The translations under genes were made by a program, and so were the position numbers. A stretch of 64,000 nucleotides of DNA, taken from NCBI GenBank assembly GCA_963701295.1, contig OY969585.1, forward strand, positions 256,001 to 320,000, written 5' to 3'. The DNA is from Ignavibacteriota bacterium (GTDB lineage Bacteria; Bacteroidota; Ignavibacteria; UBA10030). A model generated the notes under the pieces. That model did no database searches, was not told the origin of the DNA, and saw nothing but the letters and a program-made list of their open reading frames with translations. This document shows, piece after piece, positions 42,054-60,921 of the stretch; position 1 is the first letter of the stretch; each line of letters begins with the position of its first letter.

Positions 42054-42137
42054 GCCCGGATGGCGAAATTGGCAGACGCGCTAGCTTCAGGAGCTAGTGA
42101 CCGCAAGGTCTTGGGGGTTCAAGTCCCCCTTCGGGCA
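42054..42137 (+). tRNA. tRNA-Leu(CAG)
   Basis: Acceptor stem GCCCGGA/TTCGGGC, anticodon arm CTAGC-TTCAGGA-GCTAG, long variable arm, GGTTCAAGTCC; CCA not encoded. Confidence 0.95.
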
Positions 42138-50305: not shown

Positions 50306-51479
50306 CTACGATATAAACACCTTCGCCACTTCAATCAGCATGGAAGGCTGGTTCCATAACGCCGCGCGGAAGATTCCACCAAGTGTCCGCTTTTCCTCAG
50401 GAAGTTTGAGAGCACTTTCGGCAATATTGTTCAATGTGTCATCCGAGAAATTTGAGATAGCTTCCTTAATATTGTAAAACACCTCGTGCCTCCCGCCGAG
50501 ACGTTTGTGCCAGCGTTTCTCGTACTCCATCAAATGCGAAAGGTCGTTCTGCTTTACTGTTTCTGCAACGACTTGTCCGGCAATCATCCCGCCGATCATT
50601 CCGCTAATGATGCCCCCACCGGAAGTAGGATTGACCTGATGACCTGCATCGCCAACAAGCATCACTCTATTCTTTACCAACGTGTTACAGGTCTTGGCGC
50701 AAGGCACACCACCGGCAATGTGTGTCAGCATTGCTGCGTTTGGATACTTGTGTTCTACAAATTCTTGCAAATATCGAATTGCCGATTTTTTCTTTGCTTC
50801 CTCAACATTGATTCCAATCCCGACATTTGCTGTACCTTTTCCTTTCGGAAAAACCCAAAGATAACCGCCAGGCGCGATTGCATCACCGAAATAAAAATCG
50901 AGACAATCTTGCTCTGCGTCAATTCCCGAAATCGTCATTTGTGCGCAACTTTCCATATCGTGAATGTGGCACGTTGTATCAATACCAGCCCATTTACCGA
51001 CGCGACTCTCAACTCCGTCGGCGCCAACAACGACGCGTGAACGAATTTCTACCACGGTATCTTTGATGAGCGCTTTTACGCCCACTGCTTTTCCATTACT
51101 ATCCTTGAGAAGGTCATAGACATACGCTTTAGTGATAACCTTCTGTACCCTCATGTGCTGCTAATTTTGCTAATTCATAATCAAAGATACGGCGTTCGAG
51201 TACATATCCTATTCCGTCAAGTTTTGGAATAATAGATTTTCCATTGGGCGCAACCAATTTAAAGTGAGTAACTGTCGCCGCAATCCATTTTGGATCTGGC
51301 TGGATAAATTGCACAACTCCTTCGTGACTGACCGCTTCCCCACACCGCACAGGGTAACCGACATCGCGGTCTTTTTCCAATATCAACACTGAAGCGCCGC
51401 CAGCAGCAGCAAACCGTGCAGCCGTTGAACCCGCAGGCCCTGCACCGACCACTACAACGTCATATTGATTTTTAAGCAT
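50306..51479 (-). CDS. geranylgeranyl reductase family FAD oxidoreductase, split by one +1 frameshift near 51140
   Basis: VGAGPAGS, PVRCGEA, GADGVES, YLWVFP, GDAGHQVNP..GGGI; extra base in GAA-G-GTT. Confidence 0.85.
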
Positions 51480-51600: not shown

Positions 51601-51864
51601 TTACTTGTTCAAAAACATCGGTTGAGTTTTGGGCAACTCCACTACTCCTTCCCGATGAAATTGGATTACTTCCCACGGACATGCCCATACACATTTTTTG
51701 CAGTTTGTGCATCGTTCCTCTATGATAGAAATGCGCGATTCCATCAGCTCGATGGCATCTTCCGGACAAACACCGACACAGCAGCCGCAGTAATCGCACT
51801 TACCAGGTATAATGTGAATCATCAGTGGAGTTTTTCTCGGCATCTTCATCCCATCGTTCCTCAA
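51601..51864 (-). CDS. 2[4Fe-4S] ferredoxin
   Basis: CDYCGCCVGVCP and CTNCKKCVWACP. Confidence 0.9.
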   Translation of the reverse strand: MRNDGMKMPRKTPLMIHIIPGKCDYCGCCVGVCPEDAIELMESRISIIEERCTNCKKCVWACPWEVIQFHREGVVELPKTQPMFLNK

Positions 51865-53732
51865 GTTCGTATCACGTCGAGCTGTTTGAGCAAATTGTAC
51901 AGTTCCATTTCGCGTTGTTGATATGACTTCACCTCAAGTCCTTGTATCTTTGCTTTCTCGAGCAACTGTAAATTTTCTTCTCTCTCTTTTTGAATACTTT
52001 TACGATGGATAGTAACAACAGCGTCCTTCGCAATCCTCATTGGCTCCGCCTCGTCGATTTCCTTCTCCATCTCTTGCCAGCCGCGGCTCAATTCATAATG
52101 GCTCAGCACGAGATCGCTAATAAGGTCTTTGAACTCCGATTCTTGCACTTCATTTATGATCGCGGTTGCATCAATGGTTCCACGTTCGTCATACAAATCC
52201 AGAACAAACTGAGCGAGTCTCCGCATGCGTTCATCGCTGAATTGGACCAATGAGATATTCGAGAGCAAATAGCGAATAACATCGGAATCGCCTTCGAGAA
52301 TCAACTTCAAGATGTCGTGTTCCTCGGGTGGAATTGGTTTCAGCTCAGGTGCGAGAGGTTTATTAGCTTCCGACTGGCGCTGAACGAATGTTGACTTCGG
52401 AATACTGTCTGCTCGCGTAATGCGTTTTTCCTGAACGAGCGTGCGTTCAAGTTCGCGATAGAGCAGACTCTCATAGACCTCATACTTCTCTGCTACATCC
52501 TTTATATAAAAATTGCGCTTTAACTCATCTTTCATTTTAGCAATGGATTGAACGAGCGAACGTACAGCCTGTGTTTTTCCTTCGGTTGTCGTAAATGCTC
52601 CTGATCGCTGAAATTGTTTCGCCTTGAAATCGATGAAAGAAACTGCATTAGCAAGTCGTTCTCTGAATTCAATGCCGCCATGTTTCAACACAAACGAGTC
52701 CGGATCTTCTCCTTCAGGGAGTTCTACAATGCGAACATTCAAGTCGTGTTCAAGCGCAAGGTCGATTCCCCGCACGGTAGCACTGGAACCGGCGGAATCT
52801 GCATCATATATCAGAGTGAGGTTTTTTGAGTAACGCGCGATAAGCTTGAGCTGTGCTTCGGTAAGTGCGGTACCACTTGATGCGACAACATTTTGGATTC
52901 CTGCTTGGTACAGTGAAATTAAATCCGCATATCCTTCCACCATCAATGCATTATCTTCCTGACGAATAAAATCTTTCGAATGAAACAATCCATACAACAC
53001 GCGGCTTTTATCATAGAGGGGAGATTCCGGTGAGTTGATATACTTGCCGGCAATGGCATCATCCTCACGCATCTTGCGTGCGCCAAAACCGATAACGCGT
53101 CCTTGCGTTGAAAGAATCGGAAACATCGCTCGCCCGCGGAAATAATCATACAGTGAACCATCCTCCCGCACACGTGCCAGTCCGACTTTGGCAATATCTT
53201 CTATCTTAAATCCTTCCGCCTGTGCTTTAATCACAAACGCATCCCACGAGTTCATCGCATAACCAAGTCCAAAAGTGCGGATGGTTTCATCTGTAAATCC
53301 ACGCTTGTAGAAATAGTTGAAGCGCTTCTTTACCTTCTTCCGACTCCGTTAAGATTGCGAAAGAAGTGCATTCCTGCAAACCGGCAAACCGCATAATAAT
53401 TTTCAAACTCTGTCTGCTCTTCGGTCACCGGCTTGTTTTCTTCCGGAATGTTAATACCGGACTTTCGAAGCAAGAGATCGAACAGCCTCCACAAACGAAA
53501 TTTTATCCATCTCCATCAGAAATGTAAATATATTTCCGCCTTTGCCGCATCCGAAACAATGATACATTTGCTTCTCGGCACTGACCGTGAACGACGGCGT
53601 CTTTTCCGTGTGAAACGGACACAGTCCAAGATAATTCTTGCCGCGCTTTTTTAGGTGGACATATCCGGAAATGACTTCTACAATGTCTGTGGCATTTCGG
53701 ACTTCATCAATTTTATCATCAGCAATGCGCAT
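51861..53732 (-). CDS. dnaG: DNA primase, interrupted by three single-base insertions (53320-53460)
   Basis: CPFH..CFGC zinc finger (53451-53732), KYINSPE, EGYAD and YDADSAG TOPRIM motifs (51861-53255); the linker reads through if three +1 bases are removed. Confidence 0.92.
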
Positions 53733-54065: not shown

Positions 54066-54093
54066 ATAAGGCTCAGAACATTCTGAGCCTTAT
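54066..54093 (-). terminator. terminator downstream of glnA
   Basis: ATAAGGCTCAGAA-ca-TTCTGAGCCTTAT perfect inverted repeat. Confidence 0.75.
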
Positions 54094-54134: not shown

Positions 54135-55484
54135 TTAATACGTCGGAAGATATTTTTCCAATTCCCAGGGAGTCACTTCCAGACGGTAATCTTCCCACTC
54201 TAAGCGCTTTGCACTGATGAACCGTTCGAATATATGTGCTCCTAACGCTTCCCGAATAACGGTGTCTTTTTCAAATTCTGAGATTGCTTCATCAAGCGAG
54301 CCAGGCAATATATACAAGGAGGATTTCTTTTTAGGGTCATTGGAAAGGTAAATATTTTCCTCAGAGGCTTCGGGAACTTCCAATTGACGACGAATACCAT
54401 CTAACCCGGAAGCAAGCATCACAGTAAAGGCAAGATACGGATTGCAACTCGGGTCGGGACAGCGCAATTCAATGCGGGTTGATTCCGGTGTATGGGCACG
54501 CGGAATTCGAATCAATGCAGATTGGTTTATACGCCCCCAGCTAATATTGACCGGTGCTTCATACCCGACGACAAGACGTTTGTAGGAATTCACCAGTGGT
54601 GCAAGCACAGCACACATCCCGCGGGCATGGGCCAGCTGACCAGCCATAAAGTGTTTGGCAATTTTCGATAGGCCATGCGAATCTCCGGGATCTGAAAGTG
54701 CATTCCCGCCATTGGCTTTATAATTAAGCCCTTGATGTACGTGCATACCGCTGCCAGCAAGTCCGCGCAACGGTTTAGGCATGAAGGAAGCATACAAACC
54801 CTTCTGCTGGGCGAGTCGTTTCATTACCACACGGAAGGTAACTGCATCATCTGCAGTCTTTAATGAATTTGCATAACGCAGGTCCATTTCATACTGGCCT
54901 TTTGCAACTTCATGGTGCATTGCTTCAGCTTCAATTCCAAACGCTGAAAGAGTTTCTGCTGCTTGCCGCCAGAGGTCGGTCGCAATCATATCAGTTGGCA
55001 TATCAAAATAACTGGCACTATCATGTGGCTGAGGAGGAATAACCCCGCCTTGCGCATTTGGCTTCAAGAGAAAGAATTCCAACTCCGGCCCTGTATTATA
55101 GACAAACCCCATCTTTTCTGCTTCGCTCATCATCCGCGCCAATACTGCTCTTGGGTCGCCCAAAAAGGGCTGGCCATCCGGAGTATAGACATTACAAATC
55201 AATCGGGCCGTCATTTCATTATCTTTCAACCAGGGAAGGACAGCAAAGGTCGATGTATCCGGGACCAGATACATATCGCTCTCGGCGGTTCGCGCATATC
55301 CTTCGATGCAGGAACCATCAAACCAGATACCATGGCTGAGTGTAGTCTCCAATTCTTTAGTCGGGATGGTAACATTCTTCACAGCCCCGCCGACATCGGT
55401 AAATTGAAGGTCGATGAATTGAATCTTGCGCTCAGCAACCAGCGCCAGAAGTTCTTTATTTGAATATGGGAGGATTGTGGGCAT
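54135..55484 (-). CDS. glnA: type I-alpha glutamine synthetase family protein with atypical active-site residues
   Basis: FDGSC, PELEFF, HHEVA.GQYE, FMPKP, GSGMHVH, GYEAP, RIELRCPD. Confidence 0.9.
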   Translation of the reverse strand: MPTILPYSNKELLALVAERKIQFIDLQFTDVGGAVKNVTIPTKELETTLSHGIWFDGSCIEGYARTAESDMYLVPDTSTFAVLPWLKDNEMTARLICNVYTPDGQPFLGDPRAVLARMMSEAEKMGFVYNTGPELEFFLLKPNAQGGVIPPQPHDSASYFDMPTDMIATDLWRQAAETLSAFGIEAEAMHHEVAKGQYEMDLRYANSLKTADDAVTFRVVMKRLAQQKGLYASFMPKPLRGLAGSGMHVHQGLNYKANGGNALSDPGDSHGLSKIAKHFMAGQLAHARGMCAVLAPLVNSYKRLVVGYEAPVNISWGRINQSALIRIPRAHTPESTRIELRCPDPSCNPYLAFTVMLASGLDGIRRQLEVPEASEENIYLSNDPKKKSSLYILPGSLDEAISEFEKDTVIREALGAHIFERFISAKRLEWEDYRLEVTPWELEKYLPTY

Positions 55485-56455
55485 TAGCGTATCGCCTGTA
55501 ATAGTAAACCGAGTAGTGCAAGAAATATCAATATTCCCAATCCCGCTGCAACAGAAAGAACAATCGGTGATTTATAGAACGGAACTGGTTTGGATTCTTC
55601 ATACAACTTATCAAGAATGGAAAGATCAACAGACTCTAAATGATCCAGATCGTATAACAATGCCTTCATGTCCGGATACCGATCATTCGGATTTTTCATC
55701 AAGCATTTTGCAACTACTGCGGCAAGCTGCGGAGTGATCTCTGGGCGTTCTTTATCCAGCCGCGGAATCGTTCCATGCATTTGTTGTGCCATCACTGCAA
55801 GATTATTATCTCCGCTAAATGGTGTTCGTCCAGAAAGAAGTTCAAAAAATATAACACCGAGAGCATACAAATCTGTCCGTTTATCGCCACGCTTTCCTTC
55901 CACTTGTTCAGGGGCCATATAATCCGGCGTTCCGGCTGTGCCGCTGAGGTTCGCATAGGTAACTCTGTATGCTCCTTTTGTGAGAGCAAGTCCAAAATCT
56001 AAAATTATCGGCTGCTGGTTATCTGTAAAGAGAATATTTTCCGGCTTCATATCCCGGTGTATAATATTATGGTCATGGCAATGAGCAAGTCCATCCGCAA
56101 TTTTCCGAATGAGCGCAACAGCTTCATCTACAGGCATTGGCGCCGACCGACGGATCAATTCCCGCATCGATTCTCCAGTGACCAATTCCGTGACGAGATA
56201 CGGAGTACTGTTATATTTTCCGGAACCTAATCCTTTTTGGATAGAAGGATGATTTAACGTGTGCATCACTTCCAGTTCTCGTTGAAATCGCTCAAACTGC
56301 GCAGGGTCTCCTATCGTCATTCGATCTGGGACTTTTAACACTACATCCTTTCCGCTGATAAGATCGTACGCGCGGTAAATATCGCTCATTCCACCTTGGG
56401 CTATGTGCCCGCGGATTTGGAAATGGTCAAACTGATCACCTATCTGCAACATCAT
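55484..56455 (-). CDS. Hanks-type Ser/Thr protein kinase with a C-terminal TM anchor
   Basis: QGGMS, VLK, HRDMKPEN, DFG, GTPDYMAPE. Confidence 0.95.
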   Translation of the reverse strand: MMLQIGDQFDHFQIRGHIAQGGMSDIYRAYDLISGKDVVLKVPDRMTIGDPAQFERFQRELEVMHTLNHPSIQKGLGSGKYNSTPYLVTELVTGESMRELIRRSAPMPVDEAVALIRKIADGLAHCHDHNIIHRDMKPENILFTDNQQPIILDFGLALTKGAYRVTYANLSGTAGTPDYMAPEQVEGKRGDKRTDLYALGVIFFELLSGRTPFSGDNNLAVMAQQMHGTIPRLDKERPEITPQLAAVVAKCLMKNPNDRYPDMKALLYDLDHLESVDLSILDKLYEESKPVPFYKSPIVLSVAAGLGILIFLALLGLLLQAIR

Positions 56456-56562
56456 ATTCTTTCTTATTTCCTTGTGCGATTACACCTCGCACAAAAATAT
56501 ACTATTGTTTCTTCTGAAAAGCGAATATCGCTTTTTTCTTCATTTTTCCGATACTTCAATAC

Positions 56563-57390
56563 TTATAAACGACCTCTAAATCGTTTTATGATCTTTGAAA
56601 ACCGTGAGCCATACTTCGTTTGCTGCGCTACTAATTTATGCAGCATAATTGTTACAGCCGAAACATTATCATCACTCCCCCTCTTCATCGCCAGATCGAC
56701 GATCGTCTGGTTTAGCTTTTCTGCTGATACTGCCTTTGAAGCTAACATTCCAAACTCGTCATCGTCGATCACCGACCACACTCCATCCGAACAAAAGATG
56801 AGTATATCGCCATCCTGCACTTGGACTTCAAAGACATCCGGCTGCACAAAGAGATCTAAGCCGAGACATTTGCTGAGCACAGATCGCTGGCTATGGGTCC
56901 GTACTTTTTCTGGTGACAGTACCTTCATCCGCACGAGCTCACCAACACGCGTATGGTCCTTCGTCAGACATGTGGAGGTTTTTCCCCGGATCAAATACAC
57001 GCGACTGTCGCCCACGTGTGCAATGTGGAATGTGTTTTCTTTGAGTAACCCCGCAGTCAACGTCGTTCCCATTCTACCGACGCCAAGTTCTCGCGCTTTC
57101 TGATAGACATTCAGATTTGCACTCTGCACTGCCTTTTTCATTTTTTGGGGGATCGATAATCCATTACTGGAATATACAATTTCAAATAAGGTAACTAATG
57201 CTAATGTGCTCGCCACACCTCCATGAGCATACCCGCCCATGCCATCCGCCACACCAAAGAGATGCCCGTAGGCTGCCGTCAAATCATCGTGCTGATCGAT
57301 AATGCGTACAGAATCCTGATTATCCTGACGCACATTCCCGATATGCGTCAAACAGTGGGATTCTATGTCAGGCAATTCAATATGCGTCAT
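56563..57390 (-). CDS. PP2C family protein Ser/Thr phosphatase
   Basis: RQDNQD, VADGMGG, HVGDSR, CSDG, DDNVS. Confidence 0.95.
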   Translation of the reverse strand: MTHIELPDIESHCLTHIGNVRQDNQDSVRIIDQHDDLTAAYGHLFGVADGMGGYAHGGVASTLALVTLFEIVYSSNGLSIPQKMKKAVQSANLNVYQKARELGVGRMGTTLTAGLLKENTFHIAHVGDSRVYLIRGKTSTCLTKDHTRVGELVRMKVLSPEKVRTHSQRSVLSKCLGLDLFVQPDVFEVQVQDGDILIFCSDGVWSVIDDDEFGMLASKAVSAEKLNQTIVDLAMKRGSDDNVSAVTIMLHKLVAQQTKYGSRFSKIIKRFRGRL

Positions 57391-57534
57391 GCAGTTTCCA
57401 AAGTTTATAATAACACAGGAAGAAACCGCTTGTACGGCTTCCTCCTCGTGCTTCTTGAATCATTGTCATTCACCAAGTGTTTCTGAGTCCTCTCAGCTTT
57501 CTTATCGACATTAAAGGAAGGGACGAGAAATTCT

Positions 57535-59130
57535 TTATTTCGACACGGGGCTCACCCTGGGAATAATCGCCCTTCCCGATTTTTTGCTGTTCCAGACTAA
57601 ATAAACAATGCTGATCGCTCCCCAGCCTGCGGTGATCCATAATGCCATCTGAGTTGCATCTGCCGAAACTCCGGGCGTCGTTAGTCCAATGACCACAATG
57701 CCAATCAACATTCCAATGTTTCCGATAAGTCCTAAAAATGGAATGACCGCATGTTTAATGCTATGGAATTCCTTTCGCCCGACAAATGTAACGAATGTCA
57801 GGAAACAAATGAGCGCGTAAAGGGCAAACGTTCCTATGTTCGAAGCCAGCGTTACACCGGTCAAAGCTGTAACATTGAGAACTCCAACTGCGCCGATAAT
57901 CGCAGACACGACAACCAGAACCCATACACCCTTATGCGGTGTTGCATGTCTTTCGTGCAACGCACCGAGCAGGCCAGGCATTTCATTATCCTGTGCCATG
58001 GCAAAACTAATGCGCACTGCCGTATTGATGGCCGCGAGAGTGGTGCCCAGAACAGCAAGCCCAACCGTAAATGCGATAACGATCATCAGTGCAAAACCGT
58101 TCCCGCCGAGAAGAGCGTTACCGATCATAATTGTCATATCGCCGATAGGCGCGCCCGATGCGGCGGCAGCGTCTATACCGGTAAGGATCGAACCGTCAGG
58201 GTTTGTGAATGTCAGTTTCTCACATATGGCATAATTTGCTGCAAAATATTCAAGCAAGTATGCGAACAAACCTTGGATGATGAGCGAGAGAATAATCCCT
58301 CGCGGAATATCCCGTTTCGGATTGATCGATTCTCCGGCAAGTGATGTGGACGATTCAAATCCCACCAAAATGAGTATCGCTATAGTGGATTGGAAAAGCA
58401 TCGCCGCTAAGCTATGCGGAAATACTATCGACGATGAAGCAGCATGTATCCATTGTGTCGCATGAAGTGGATTCGTAAACCGAAAAGCAATTGCAAGCGC
58501 ACTGAATCCGATCAATGAAACCAGCTGGATAACGTTGATCACAATTGCGACATTTGTCGAACCGCTGATACCACGAACGGCAATAAAGCCAACGATGACA
58601 GCAAAAATTACAGCAACCAATATTTGATATGAAACGCTAAGATTGATACCGAACTGTCCACAAATATAAGTTACTAAGATAGACATAAAGGCTACCATCA
58701 CACCAGGGTATACCCAGTAGAAGAGATGTGCTGCCCAGCCCGTGAGAAATTTCGAGATCCGCGCAAATTTCTGATGATGGGCTTTGTCACGATCAAGAAA
58801 TGCCCTTTCTGCGAAATAGTATGAGCCTCCCGCTCCTGCTTCGGGATAACGCCGAGCCATTTCGGAGAACGAAATTGCCGTCAAAAATGCCACGATAAGT
58901 GCGGCAACTATTCCGGTCCACATATCGGACGCTCCACCGGTATTTGCTGCTTGGATCTGAAATGTAATCCATAAAAATGCGCCCGGGGCAATGAGCGCCA
59001 TTGCATTAACCGTCACTCCGGTCAAACCGAGAGTTTTTTTCATGCCTGTGTCTGTACTAGCCATTGAATACCTCCATGAATTTAATGATGATACTATTGA
59101 TTTCCTTTTTGTACTTTCAGTGAAAGCCAA
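57535..59130 (-). CDS. APC family amino acid/amine permease
   Basis: EMARRYPEAGAGGSY, GFES...AGESINPKRDIP, about 12 TM; likely start 59064 (MASTD, RBS GGAGG). Confidence 0.9.
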   Translation of the reverse strand: MAFTESTKRKSIVSSLNSWRYSMASTDTGMKKTLGLTGVTVNAMALIAPGAFLWITFQIQAANTGGASDMWTGIVAALIVAFLTAISFSEMARRYPEAGAGGSYYFAERAFLDRDKAHHQKFARISKFLTGWAAHLFYWVYPGVMVAFMSILVTYICGQFGINLSVSYQILVAVIFAVIVGFIAVRGISGSTNVAIVINVIQLVSLIGFSALAIAFRFTNPLHATQWIHAASSSIVFPHSLAAMLFQSTIAILILVGFESSTSLAGESINPKRDIPRGIILSLIIQGLFAYLLEYFAANYAICEKLTFTNPDGSILTGIDAAAASGAPIGDMTIMIGNALLGGNGFALMIVIAFTVGLAVLGTTLAAINTAVRISFAMAQDNEMPGLLGALHERHATPHKGVWVLVVVSAIIGAVGVLNVTALTGVTLASNIGTFALYALICFLTFVTFVGRKEFHSIKHAVIPFLGLIGNIGMLIGIVVIGLTTPGVSADATQMALWITAGWGAISIVYLVWNSKKSGRAIIPRVSPVSK

Positions 59131-59135
59131 TCCGA

Positions 59136-59960
59136 CTAAATATTAATATCCAATTGCATCGTAAAGGTGCTCGGGATATCAGCATTGAAAACGTCCCGTG
59201 CAAAGATAACGCTCACGTTTTTTGAGAACGACCATGCAAAGCCGTAGCTCAATGCACCAAAGCTGCTTTTGCTGCCTTGGTAATCGACTGCAAGCCAGAG
59301 ATTCTCGCTAATTTCGGGGATCATTCTGTCCCATGAAAGCAAGACCCCGGAGTTATCAGCTTTACCGGTTGAAAGATCGACCAACAGTTTCTTGTTCCCA
59401 GAAAAGTACCCTACTTCAAGTCGTCCTATGACCGGAAATGTTCTCCCGATTATTCCATAGGCAATATTAAAGTCCGTTACATTTTTTAGAAACCCGAAAT
59501 CAAATCCTCCGACGGCGATCGCGGGGGACCAGTCGACGAGTACTCCCTCCGGAACACCAACCTTCGCATTCACAAGGAATGGCGATAATTGCGGTGTAAA
59601 ATAATCGACGCCGATTTCCGCTTGCACAATGGAATCGGGCAACACTCCGACTGTTAAATTGAGATCCGTCGGGAATGCTGTACCGCTGAATGATTTTCCA
59701 CTTCTAAAATCGTATGCATAATTATCGATGCCAAGATGAAACGATTTATATCCTTGGAAATCCACAGAAGGAATCCAAATAATCGTAGATGGTGTAGCAT
59801 AAGTAAATGAGCTTGACAACACCAAAATCGCAAGTATGACGAGGGCAGCCTTTTGAATTGATTTCATATTGTTTCTCTTCTTGTATAAAACATAGATAAA
59901 TGAGCTTGTCATCATGAAGATCGCAACCATTGTAAGTATAGTTTTTTGAATCGATTTCAT
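59136..59960 (-). CDS. putative outer-membrane beta-barrel/porin-like protein with a duplicated signal peptide
   Basis: Signal ending TYA-TPST, alternating beta pattern, C-terminal QLDINI. Confidence 0.7.
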   Translation of the reverse strand: MKSIQKTILTMVAIFMMTSSFIYVLYKKRNNMKSIQKAALVILAILVLSSSFTYATPSTIIWIPSVDFQGYKSFHLGIDNYAYDFRSGKSFSGTAFPTDLNLTVGVLPDSIVQAEIGVDYFTPQLSPFLVNAKVGVPEGVLVDWSPAIAVGGFDFGFLKNVTDFNIAYGIIGRTFPVIGRLEVGYFSGNKKLLVDLSTGKADNSGVLLSWDRMIPEISENLWLAVDYQGSKSSFGALSYGFAWSFSKNVSVIFARDVFNADIPSTFTMQLDINI

Positions 59961-59970
59961 ATTGTTTCTC
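59798..59970 (-). repeat. 93-bp-period tandem duplication of RBS plus signal-peptide coding sequence
   Basis: 59798-59877 vs 59891-59970; MKSIQK...SSF.Y occurs twice in frame. Confidence 0.85.
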
Positions 59971-60204
59971 CTTAATTAGGTTATAAAATATTATTTGCCT
60001 TATTGATTTTAATGAAAAACATGTATTCGTCCGGTTGATAACCGGGATACATCGGCATTGATGATATGGTTCAGCAGGTTGGGCCGCACGAATCCCGGTA
60101 GAAAAACTGATAGCAAAAAATGACACCATAATGGTTAATAAAATCTTCATGAATAACCTTTCCTTATGCGAGTTTGTTGATTTTTTATTTACACTCTTGA
60201 TCCT

Positions 60205-60540
60205 TCAAACGGATTTCCCCGTTCCGTTTGGATAGACCTGGCTGACATCATTGACGGATGAAACATAGATTTTATCGTGTTCCTTTTTCCCTGATTGCCC
60301 ACTTTTTACAATAATCGAAACTGCTTTGGGTACCAAATGTTGCGGAACTATCGCTTCCAACTTGAATCTTATAAGGTACGAGACATCATATTCACTGCCG
60401 CGATAAATCTCTTTATGTTCCTTTTGTTTATCAAAATCACATACCTCTGTTACCGTTATTCCCTGGATTCCAGCACTCGACAGCGCCTCACGAACATCTT
60501 CCAGCTTACCGGGACTGATTATTGCTTCGATTTTTTCCAT
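60205..60540 (-). CDS. PII family protein with degenerate nucleotide-binding loops
   Basis: KIEAII.P.KL, GITVTEV, YRGSEY; collinear with GlnB over 111 aa. Confidence 0.85.
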   Translation of the reverse strand: MEKIEAIISPGKLEDVREALSSAGIQGITVTEVCDFDKQKEHKEIYRGSEYDVSYLIRFKLEAIVPQHLVPKAVSIIVKSGQSGKKEHDKIYVSSVNDVSQVYPNGTGKSV

Positions 60541-60921
60541 GGTCCACCTAACGAATACTTTATTATATATCGTTGCTTAATGCAACTACCTTAGAATATA
60601 AGGTATAATTATTAATAGTCAATAGTTTGTTAATTAATTTCTTCTAATGACCTTATTATAGTAAACTATTATTTACGAAACATCGGAACTTTTACATGCT
60701 TATTCCTGTTTAGAGTGGGCCGGCAAATCAGCAAACATTTTATTAATTCCACCCGTTAGATAATCCTCGAACAATGTATTTCTTTTGGCTAATATATTAT
60801 GGTATGTGCAAGTCATTTATTTTTCAATGCTTTCCCCTATTCGTCTGTTGCCTTCATTCTTTTCAAAACGTACATTGTAACCAATGAACATTGCTCAACG
60901 TAATTGAGATCGTAAATCCAA

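Follow-up and report, generated by a model that had tools for sequence, protein, structure and literature searches.

Conserved linkage of an APC permease, a PP2C phosphatase and a tail-anchored Hanks kinase to glutamine synthetase or AmtB genes, and its possible role in nitrogen signaling

In the textbook account, glutamine synthetase (GS) and ammonium uptake are controlled by PII proteins, by uridylylation or adenylylation, and by transcription factors; classically, GlnE adenylylates GSI-β, and GSI-α is subject to GlnR/TnrA together with feedback by glutamine. We analyzed a gene cassette of an Ignavibacteriota bacterium (assembly GCA_963701295.1, contig OY969585.1) in which a GSI-α gene, glnA, is preceded by genes for an APC-superfamily permease, a PP2C-type phosphatase and a Hanks-type Ser/Thr kinase. 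The cassette lies on the minus strand at positions 54135-60540 of the 64,000-nucleotide stretch that was analyzed (the window, to which all positions refer unless the genome contig C1 is named). As in classical control, the regulation considered here would act post-translationally on a dodecameric GSI; unlike in classical control, there is no glnE, glnR or tnrA beside the cassette glnA, and the proposed modification is Ser/Thr phosphorylation. The cassette enzyme is a GSI-α, whereas the housekeeping GS enzymes of the host are a GSI-β and a GSIII.

By analogy, the described system nearest to the cassette in logic is the PknG-GlnH-GlnX-GarA/OdhI pathway of actinobacteria. According to the sections of two articles on which we draw (PMC6069109, PMC9769921), it is a nitrogen-signal kinase pathway acting on glutamate/2-oxoglutarate metabolism, and its Hanks kinase, like that of the cassette, has no extracellular sensor of its own; PknG receives an amino-acid or nitrogen signal from membrane and periplasmic partners encoded beside it, as is proposed for the cassette kinase. 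The two systems differ in that PknG carries TPR and rubredoxin domains and the cassette kinase neither; the cassette partner is an APC permease, a PP2C gene is adjacent, and the linked output gene encodes GS or AmtB. No GlnH, GlnX, solute-binding protein or FHA adaptor was found in the cassette locus, and the sole FHA match in the host genome is a 24-bit fragment at C1:547909-548001, away from the cassette.

Other known systems share single features with the cassette. The phosphatase gene directly precedes the kinase gene in PknB/PstP, Stk1/Stp1 and PrkC/PrpC as well, and the cassette proteins comprise a Stp1-like PP2C and a PknB-like catalytic domain; the cassette kinase, however, lacks PASTA domains, is tail-anchored and tied to a dedicated permease, and has genes of nitrogen metabolism, not of the cell wall, as its context. 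A PP2C-type phosphatase also serves the cyanobacterial PII Ser49 cycle, and PII genes, many encoding Ser49, recur in cassettes, but PII is absent from most of them and degenerate in this genus; no cyanobacterial record was among the matches listed in the three seeded scans described below. The placement of a PII gene immediately before a nitrogen transporter gene recalls the GlnK-AmtB pair, although the transporter here is an APC permease accompanied by a porin, and the PII-like protein lacks the motifs for ATP and 2-oxoglutarate. Among eukaryotes, Gap1, Mep2/Npr1 and AMT1/CIPK23 couple a permease to a Ser/Thr kinase in nitrogen sensing; their kinases are unrelated and soluble and not encoded in an operon, so that the likeness is one of analogy only. 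No published description of the cassette was found by a full-text literature search, outside whose coverage most subscription journals lie; the cassette is a new arrangement of known parts, undescribed in the searchable literature.

The six genes named in a preliminary description of this DNA (PII-like, porin-like, APC permease, PP2C, Hanks kinase and GlnA) were all confirmed on the minus strand, at the coordinates given here for each; with a small open reading frame (ORF) included, the order from 5' to 3' is PII-like, small ORF, barrel, permease, PP2C, kinase, glnA. The permease gene (57535-59130, minus strand) encodes 531 residues if translation begins at TTG 59130; since relatives start aligning at about residues 14-30, translation may begin instead at ATG 59064, giving 509 residues. 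The PP2C/PPM Ser/Thr phosphatase (56563-57390, minus strand; 275 residues) is followed by the kinase (55484-56455, minus strand; 323 residues) and by glnA (54135-55484, minus strand; 449 residues). The TAATG overlap that had been reported at 55484 is present in the sequence: in cgcTAATGccc at 55486-55482, the kinase stop codon and the glnA start codon share one base.

A synteny search across genomes, already called for in the preliminary description, was run from three independent seeds (the kinase, GlnA and a permease profile) in contigs representing one genome per species, each scan taking the best 80 of several hundred matches. From all three seeds, the gene order proved to be a conserved module and not unique to this genome. 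Among the best 80 loci of the kinase-seeded scan, drawn from 593 relatives, PP2C was directly upstream of the kinase in 58, the permease lay upstream beyond it in 49, and both were found in 45; where the contig left room upstream, both partners were present in 42/68. The 79 permease-seeded loci had PP2C next to the permease in 64 cases, a kinase within 4.5 kb in 68 and both in 61, or 58 of the 69 with room. When GlnA was the seed, the kinase gene lay directly upstream in 73 of the 75 distinct sequences at least 60% identical to the cassette enzyme, the other two being at contig ends. The next GlnA relatives (51-53% identical; Bipolaricaulota, Thermotogota and Fraserbacteria) had the kinase in 0/10 loci with room, and seven remoter ones (about 46-50%; Chloroflexota and Dormibacterota) were again kinase-linked. 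Altogether, the permease-PP2C-kinase triad was found in at least 108 de-duplicated records labeled as 14 named phyla, 13 of them bacterial; this count is a lower bound, as the table merges records by shortened title and takes permeases of at least 40% identity.

The genes of the triad are in places joined more closely than by adjacency. PP2C and kinase share one open frame in 10 loci labeled Verrucomicrobiota, Planctomycetota and other phyla, and in two of these 10 frames Pfam recognized the pair of domains within a single protein. With start codons chosen by a heuristic, the stop codon of the kinase overlaps the start codon of GlnA in 16/27 delimited pairs and that of AmtB in 7/12. The gene directly downstream of the kinase in the best 80 kinase-seeded loci encodes GlnA in 30/80 and AmtB in 14/80. 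Anaerolineae show the order amt-permease-PP2C-kinase-glnA followed by a second, GSI-β-like glnA, and Binatia, together with records labeled delta-proteobacteria or Myxococcota, show permease-PP2C-kinase-amt; Ktedonobacter racemifer and K. robiniae (loci L228 and L229) have the permease with kinase and amt nearby. A looser version, permease-PP2C-PII-PII(-PII)-kinase, occurs in the archaeal Methanoregulaceae. Two loci have NtrC-type sigma-54 activators near the cassette. Judged by gene order, the permease-PP2C-kinase triad is a unit tied to ammonium-assimilation genes.

Some details of these loci were noted in passing. Two or three PII-like genes stand between PP2C and kinase in loci L208, L216 and L217, the L208 kinase being on the opposite strand; another Methanoregulaceae locus (L218) has its PII gene before the permease instead. 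The Amt proteins encoded directly after a kinase (L054, L059, L071, L074, L075, L077, L079 and others) share the C-terminal tail EVEW[ST]GLDALEMG[ST]DAYP, from which the AmtB tails of our host differ. It is possible that the tail of the kinase-coupled Amt is phospho-regulated; a comparison of EVEW[ST]GLD...MG[ST]DAY with the plant AMT1 site gave no confident alignment and was dropped.

The kinase matches Pkinase (PF00069) with 170.9 bits, and its catalytic residues K41, E60, H133-R134-D135, N140, D153-F154-G155 and the GTPDYMAPE segment (P182-E183) are invariant or nearly so among 76 orthologues. Its C-terminus is a single hydrophobic helix followed by a few residues. Such a tail helix with no sensor or ectodomain was seen in 76/79 orthologues, the three exceptions including one broken frame, in agreement with the earlier statement that the kinase is membrane-anchored and has no external sensor. 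No PASTA or other extracellular domain was found on it, and against the PknB_PASTA model (NF033483) it scores 266 bits for a cut-off of 450, matching model positions 9-270 of 563 only. The phosphatase exceeds the Pfam cut-offs for PP2C (PF00481; 62.2 bits vs. 20.3) and PP2C_2 (PF13672; 42.6 vs. 24), and reaches 203.4 bits, under the cut-off of 230, with Stp1/IreP (NF033484). It carries RQDNQD, DGMGG, GDSR, SDG and DDN, which correspond to the metal-binding motifs of the PP2C family.

The permease belongs to AA_permease_2 (PF13520; 82.6 bits, cut-off 27) and also matches PF00324 (72 bits, cut-off 24.6), and its orthologues have a mean column identity of 43%. It fell into none of the named APC subfamilies of NCBIfam (BcaP, ethanolamine, CAT, urea-carboxylase permease and others), the best being TIGR00909 with 87.9 bits for a cut-off of 556.8. 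Among solved structures, the chains closest to it, with 30-52 bits, are those of cationic amino-acid transporters, and the best match of the profile in PDB is plant CAT4 at 52.5 bits. With no NCBIfam subfamily fitting and the PDB likeness to cationic amino-acid transporters weak, the naming of a permease substrate was given up.

A complex of permease and kinase, predicted from our own alignments, gave a median interface score (ipSAE) of 0.49 (runs 0.50, 0.49 and 0.41), compared with 0.00 for the best of three controls. The predicted local distance difference test (pLDDT) of the partner was at least 73, and the runs share at least 30% of contacts. In the calibration, the mark was reached by 116/157 solved complexes and 2/215 mismatched pairs; at scores up to 0.60, it was reached by 18/157 solved complexes and by both of the passing mismatches. 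The model thus lends weak support to a permease-kinase contact, and so to the earlier idea that the permease signals to the kinase.

These observations can be joined in a mechanism. The conserved core is a dedicated APC permease, the PP2C and a short Hanks kinase that is tail-anchored in the inner membrane with its catalytic domain facing the cytoplasm. Because a tail-anchored, sensor-less kinase needs a membrane partner, the permease is the proposed source of input, and the kinase would respond in the membrane to its occupancy or transport state. Kinase and PP2C would set the Ser/Thr phosphorylation of the co-encoded GS and so tune ammonium assimilation, beside the GlnK-AmtB, GlnB, GSI-β and GSIII proteins of the host. 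The kinase gene is translationally coupled to an ammonium-assimilation gene, which encodes a GlnA of a special GSI-α clade here and AmtB in other lineages, and a porin of one of two unrelated families would pass the permease substrate through the outer membrane. GS appears the most likely output in this genome because of the kinase-glnA translational coupling and the separate GS clade. We consider the prospects of a permease-coupled kinase/PP2C switch acting on the cassette GS to be about even. A wider picture, which we offer tentatively and with more doubt than trust, is that of a prokaryotic nutrient transceptor: a permease-sensing kinase and PP2C would reversibly phosphorylate GS, or AmtB elsewhere, as a third mode of GS control, within a self-contained cassette that would have spread among many phyla of bacteria and also into archaea.

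If true, this would add a eukaryote-like phosphorylation layer to the control of GS and ammonium uptake, and would provide a concrete candidate for what activates sensor-less bacterial Ser/Thr kinases. The cassette is of interest both for nitrogen regulation and for bacterial Ser/Thr signaling; it occurs in lineages of high abundance in peat, soil and wastewater (Anaerolineae, Ignavibacteria, Holophagaceae and Binatia), and its kinase, PP2C, GS, PII and permease tail form a defined protein set in which to look for nitrogen-dependent phosphosites.

Several points weigh against a switch of this kind. The results here point to no phosphorylation target, and AmtB-type cassettes that have no GlnA mean that GlnA cannot be a universal one. 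No substrate is named for the permease, whose solved relatives lie as far off as the 30-52 bits given above. The interface score of 0.49 falls in a range in which a pass is wrong in more cases than it is right, except for pairs that had been likely from the outset. Under our thresholds, 26 of the 68 kinase-seeded loci with room lack PP2C, the permease or both, and that set, having been ordered by similarity to the window kinase, is enriched for orthologues. The comparators are nearly all metagenome-assembled genomes, whose taxon labels may be wrong. Finally, a conserved hairpin parts the permease gene from PP2C-kinase-glnA, and the two halves may be expressed apart.

Foremost among the alternatives, kinase and PP2C would regulate the permease itself, in a form of uptake control, and GlnA or AmtB would be co-expressed to handle the incoming nitrogen. 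Parallels are the action of Npr1 on Mep2/Gap1 in yeast and that of CIPK23 on AMT1 in plants. Permease, PP2C and kinase are indeed the core of the cassette, with a downstream gene that varies (GlnA, AmtB or none); the modeled permease-kinase contact (0.49 vs. 0.00), weakly supported as it is, points the same way, as does the position of PII directly before the permease or porin-permease genes in several lineages, like glnK before amtB. Control of the permease would nevertheless leave the separate clade of linked GlnA, with its signature residues, unexplained; the kinase gene is coupled to glnA or amtB and not to the permease gene, and no conserved cytoplasmic Ser/Thr motif was identified in the permease. 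We regard this alternative as doubtful, but as one to be taken seriously.

The residues that set the linked GlnA apart are Trp54, found in 82/82 kinase-linked sequences where 13 unlinked ones have Ala, and Thr39 and Thr101, each present in 99-100% of the main linked clade. The clade-specific T39, T101 and T131 are listed as candidate phosphosites. There is a precedent for such phosphorylation: according to the part of a review consulted here (PMC6213207), GlnA of Bacillus subtilis, a GSI-α, is phosphorylated by PrkC.

PII was another candidate substrate; as in the cycle known from cyanobacteria, the kinase would phosphorylate Ser49 of PII and the PP2C would act as the PII-P phosphatase. In the portion of the source on which we rely (PMC8042125), the PP2C-type enzyme PphA is the phosphatase and the cyanobacterial PII kinase has never been identified. 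PII genes recur in or beside the cassette in several lineages. Canonical PII with RGSEY is encoded directly before the permease in loci L058, L063, L066 and L075 (Verrucomicrobiota and Binataceae) and PII before porin-permease in L169, L177, L194 and L195, and one PII lies between PP2C and kinase in Syntrophobacteraceae and in a record labeled 'delta proteobacterium'. The window protein (60205-60540, minus strand; 111 residues) matches Pfam P-II (60.3 bits, cut-off 25), aligns gap-free to a solved GlnB chain over residues 1-100 of the latter, keeps the T-loop YRGSEY and retains Ser49 and Tyr51. By our thresholds, however, only 19/108 triad-bearing records have a PII gene in the locus and most cassettes have none; in L194 and L195, residue 49 is Ala.

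The window protein is itself degenerate. It scores 100 bits, below the cut-off of 202, against the NCBIfam PII equivalogs. PII proteins bind ATP/ADP and 2-oxoglutarate through GFGRQKG, TGxxGDGKIF and a C-terminal RxR; here the Gly-rich loops are altered (GFGRQKG to DFDKQKE, TGKIGDGKIF to SGKKEHDKIY) and the RxR is gone, so that the ligand-binding glycines and arginines are missing. The protein is degenerate in all five genomes of the genus seen, in which it is 46-87% identical between genomes, compared with 83-98% for the other cassette proteins in those same genomes. Position 49 is S, D, N or D in the four intact copies, the L091 copy being frameshifted. The PP2C scores, for its part, are no closer to the cyanobacterial enzyme: solved chains 5iti and 2j82, which we take to be tPphA, gave about 105 bits and PstP or Stp1 100-103 bits. 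A specific kinship of the PP2C to the cyanobacterial PII phosphatase was accordingly dropped, the equal scores being evidence neither for nor against it. A PII-directed kinase and phosphatase therefore seem unlikely. The preliminary description had named PII as a switched target beside GlnA, and for this genus that idea loses its footing, given a degenerate, fast-evolving protein in which Ser49 is not kept among the closest relatives. From the sequences compared, the PII-like gene is a variable, fast-evolving add-on and not a core part of the cassette; the porin gene, too, is a variable addition.

The same description had considered that the permease imports an amine or polyamine which the GlnA-like enzyme gamma-glutamylates. 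GS-like paralogues beside permeases do so in Streptomyces and Pseudomonas, according to the parts of one article available to us (PMC5403932), in which the ammonium-site Asp, Tyr and flap Glu are replaced in the gamma-glutamylpolyamine synthetases PauA7 and GlnA3. The host has other GS genes, which makes the cassette GS spare, and a partial score of 279.7 bits was obtained with gamma-glutamylputrescine synthetase (GGputSyn, NF045547). The cut-off of that model is 650, far above the score, and the enzyme is likewise far below the NCBIfam cut-offs for 'type III' ligases. It does exceed the curated equivalog cut-off of TIGR00653 for GS (480.5 bits vs. 429.15), has the domains Gln-synt_C (PF00120; 393 bits) and Gln-synt_N (PF03951; 103 bits), and its best solved relatives are archaeal and Firmicute-type true GS at 420-451 bits (8oow, 451), as against 270 bits for a glutamate-methylamine ligase. 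D56, S58, E134, E136, Y159, H190, E192 and E199, which include the metal-binding Glu and His residues, do not vary among 75 members of the clade, and the GYEAP flap Glu is seen in the window sequence; enteric Asp50, Tyr179 and flap Glu327 were mapped to D56, Y159 and the GYEAP Glu from alignment offsets, an inferred correspondence. Because the enzyme retains these ammonium-site residues, gamma-glutamylation of amines by GlnA is unlikely, and as AmtB stands in its place in other lineages, we give the amine-import scheme very little credence.

That the genes are neighbors by chance or local history, with no functional link, would suit the generic nature of the kinase and PP2C domains, a pair that could serve general signaling in a genome with three Hanks kinases and with the cassette PP2C as its sole PP2C_2 match, but is highly improbable in view of an order and orientation conserved over many labeled phyla from three seeds, of gene fusions and stop/start overlaps, and of the coincidence of linkage with an abrupt step in GlnA identity.

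The barrel gene (ORF 59136-59960, minus strand; probable start at 59870, a second ATG, giving 59136-59870 and 244 residues) falls into no Pfam or NCBIfam family. It has 1733 homologues, of which all 120 listed are a 'hypothetical protein' or unnamed. Its AlphaFold2 model (pLDDT 77.8; predicted template modeling score (pTM) 0.71) has a signal helix and 12 strands, and the matches listed by Foldseek are nearly all outer-membrane barrels. The best template modeling scores, 0.45-0.64, were to the 12-stranded KdgM, VhGalP and NanC (9-11% identity) and to an invasin beta-domain. On this model, the term porin-like is reasonable at the level of the fold.

Hosts with an outer membrane have a porin gene directly before the permease gene. 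It encodes the small barrel in the window, in L001/L094 (one contig), and in L091, L194, L195, L196 and L198, and a BBP2 (OmpL-like) porin in 12 loci. Both kinds occur among the closest relatives (GlnA 95-98% identical), where L193 and L225 carry BBP2 and the small barrel is common to L001, L091 and the window, and there pepF and dnaG flank the cassette as in the window wherever the locus reaches that far. The two kinds of porin look like a case of non-orthologous replacement, which would argue that an outer-membrane channel is wanted for the permease cargo. The order PII-small barrel-permease-PP2C appears again in an unrelated lineage (L194 and L195), with the kinase in L195; the L194 contig ends before that point.

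Between the PII-like and barrel genes lies the small ORF (59746-60150, minus strand; 134 residues, signal peptide, true end uncertain), for which no Pfam or NCBIfam family was found. Relatives were detected by tblastn at the same place in L001 (68%) and L225/L096 (49%). Its second half reads, in another frame, the duplicated 5' region of the barrel gene. This tandem duplication (59798-59970), found by a repeat search, consists of two 80-nt copies that are 93 nt apart and 76% identical; it spans the ribosome site and signal peptide of the barrel gene, so that MKSIQK... starts occur twice in frame. At this place, 140 nt (59801 to 59942) are missing from one relative's metatranscriptome contig, and relatives without the duplication may exist.

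Signals for transcription were sought next to and within the cassette. Upstream of the PII-like gene, a consensus scan found a promoter-like site, TTGACT-16-TATATT (60595-60622, minus strand), with 10/12 consensus matches; this is a pattern only, and host promoters may be of another type. A sigma-54 promoter was also considered and rejected: none was found before the operon, and the sigma-54 consensus, with at most three mismatches, matched the window 79 times vs. 85.7 expected. The hairpin that had been reported to close the operon is present 3' of glnA (54066-54093, minus strand) and has the form of a strong intrinsic terminator, with a 12-bp stem, a 4-nt loop and then the T-run TGTTTTTCGG. 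A second, terminator-like hairpin was found in the 144 nt that separate the permease gene from PP2C (57417-57446, minus strand). Its arms are GGAGGAAGCCGT-loop-GCGGTTTCTTCC, forming a 13-bp stem with 6 GC pairs, and the U-rich GTGTTATTAT follows. In an alignment of nine rows, two of them duplicate contigs, the stem is near-invariant among 7 distinct close relatives and the flanks drift; covariation is absent. Rfam gave no family in the operon or at this hairpin, the sole operon match being a chance-level snoRNA (E 0.19). The hairpin may serve in attenuation, transcript processing or transcript stability, and the transcripts of the transporter half and of the signaling half may, in this genus, be separate or attenuated. 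Of the earlier proposal of one operon, the common strand and the terminal hairpin stand; a single transcript is uncertain, since the terminator-like hairpin intervenes.

Two peat metatranscriptome runs from two studies contained contigs 90-99% like the region, in 28 and 29 of 30 bins. They represent relatives in RNA libraries, which cannot show transcription, strand or level, and among the listed contigs none bridges a gene junction.

The host genome, a single contig of 3.64 Mb, encodes elsewhere the housekeeping genes of ammonium assimilation: GSI-β, GSIII, two glnK-amtB pairs and a separate glnB. GSI-β (471 residues; 651 bits to TIGR00653) adjoins GSIII (702 residues) on one strand at C1:1021490-1025269 (L088), so that the genome has three GS types when the cassette GSI-α is counted. 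Judging from this gene content, the cassette GS is not needed by the host for housekeeping. The glnK-amtB pairs, each of 112 + 408 residues, stand head to tail at C1:805161-808579 (L089 5161-8579), a recent-looking duplication of the whole pair.

Distribution and phylogeny fit the horizontal origin that had been suggested for the locus. A permease orthologue was found in 5/301 sampled genomes of the host phylum, the host included; it is present in 3/5 other genomes of the genus, 0/9 from other genera of the family, and one in another family. A quick maximum-likelihood tree of GlnA was built from 100 rows, with support from the Shimodaira-Hasegawa-like approximate likelihood ratio test (SH-aLRT) only; of 21 paralogues under 40% identity, 16 were left out and five kept as outgroup. 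The kinase-linked GlnA sequences all fall into a single group (82 rows, SH-aLRT 90). Within the main linked clade (75 rows, 98), Chloroflexota sequences branch first, and those of Bacteroidota, Ignavibacteriota, Kryptoniota and Acidobacteriota make up a nested clade (43 rows, 98); Holophagaceae occupy two places in the tree. Because GlnA nests among Chloroflexota and the cassette is patchily distributed in the phylum, the cassette was probably transferred horizontally; the tree fits Chloroflexota-like donors and the host lineage as recipient, the direction resting on one rooted quick tree and on sampling. The guanine-plus-cytosine content of the cassette core, 46.2% vs. 42.4% ± 2.2% for the genome, is as high in 1.9% of 5-kb windows and is compatible with transfer and equally with gene-specific composition.

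The cassette is flanked by a divergent pepF upstream and by dnaG downstream. The dnaG gene (51861-53732, minus strand) is broken into a zinc-ribbon part (53451-53732) and a remainder (51861-53255), and between them, in about 130 nt, the frame passes from 0 to 1, then to 2 and back to 0, three shifts in all; in the close relative L091, the stretch is a single intact frame. Either the assembly is prone to indels or this copy of an essential gene is a pseudogene, and on account of the break indel errors elsewhere in the window are to be kept in mind. A gene of the geranylgeranyl-reductase family (50306-51479, minus strand) is split into ORFs of 116 and 282 residues with a 26-nt overlap, which looks like another frameshift. 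The sole Rfam match above the gathering score in the window is a tRNA gene at 42054-42137 on the plus strand.

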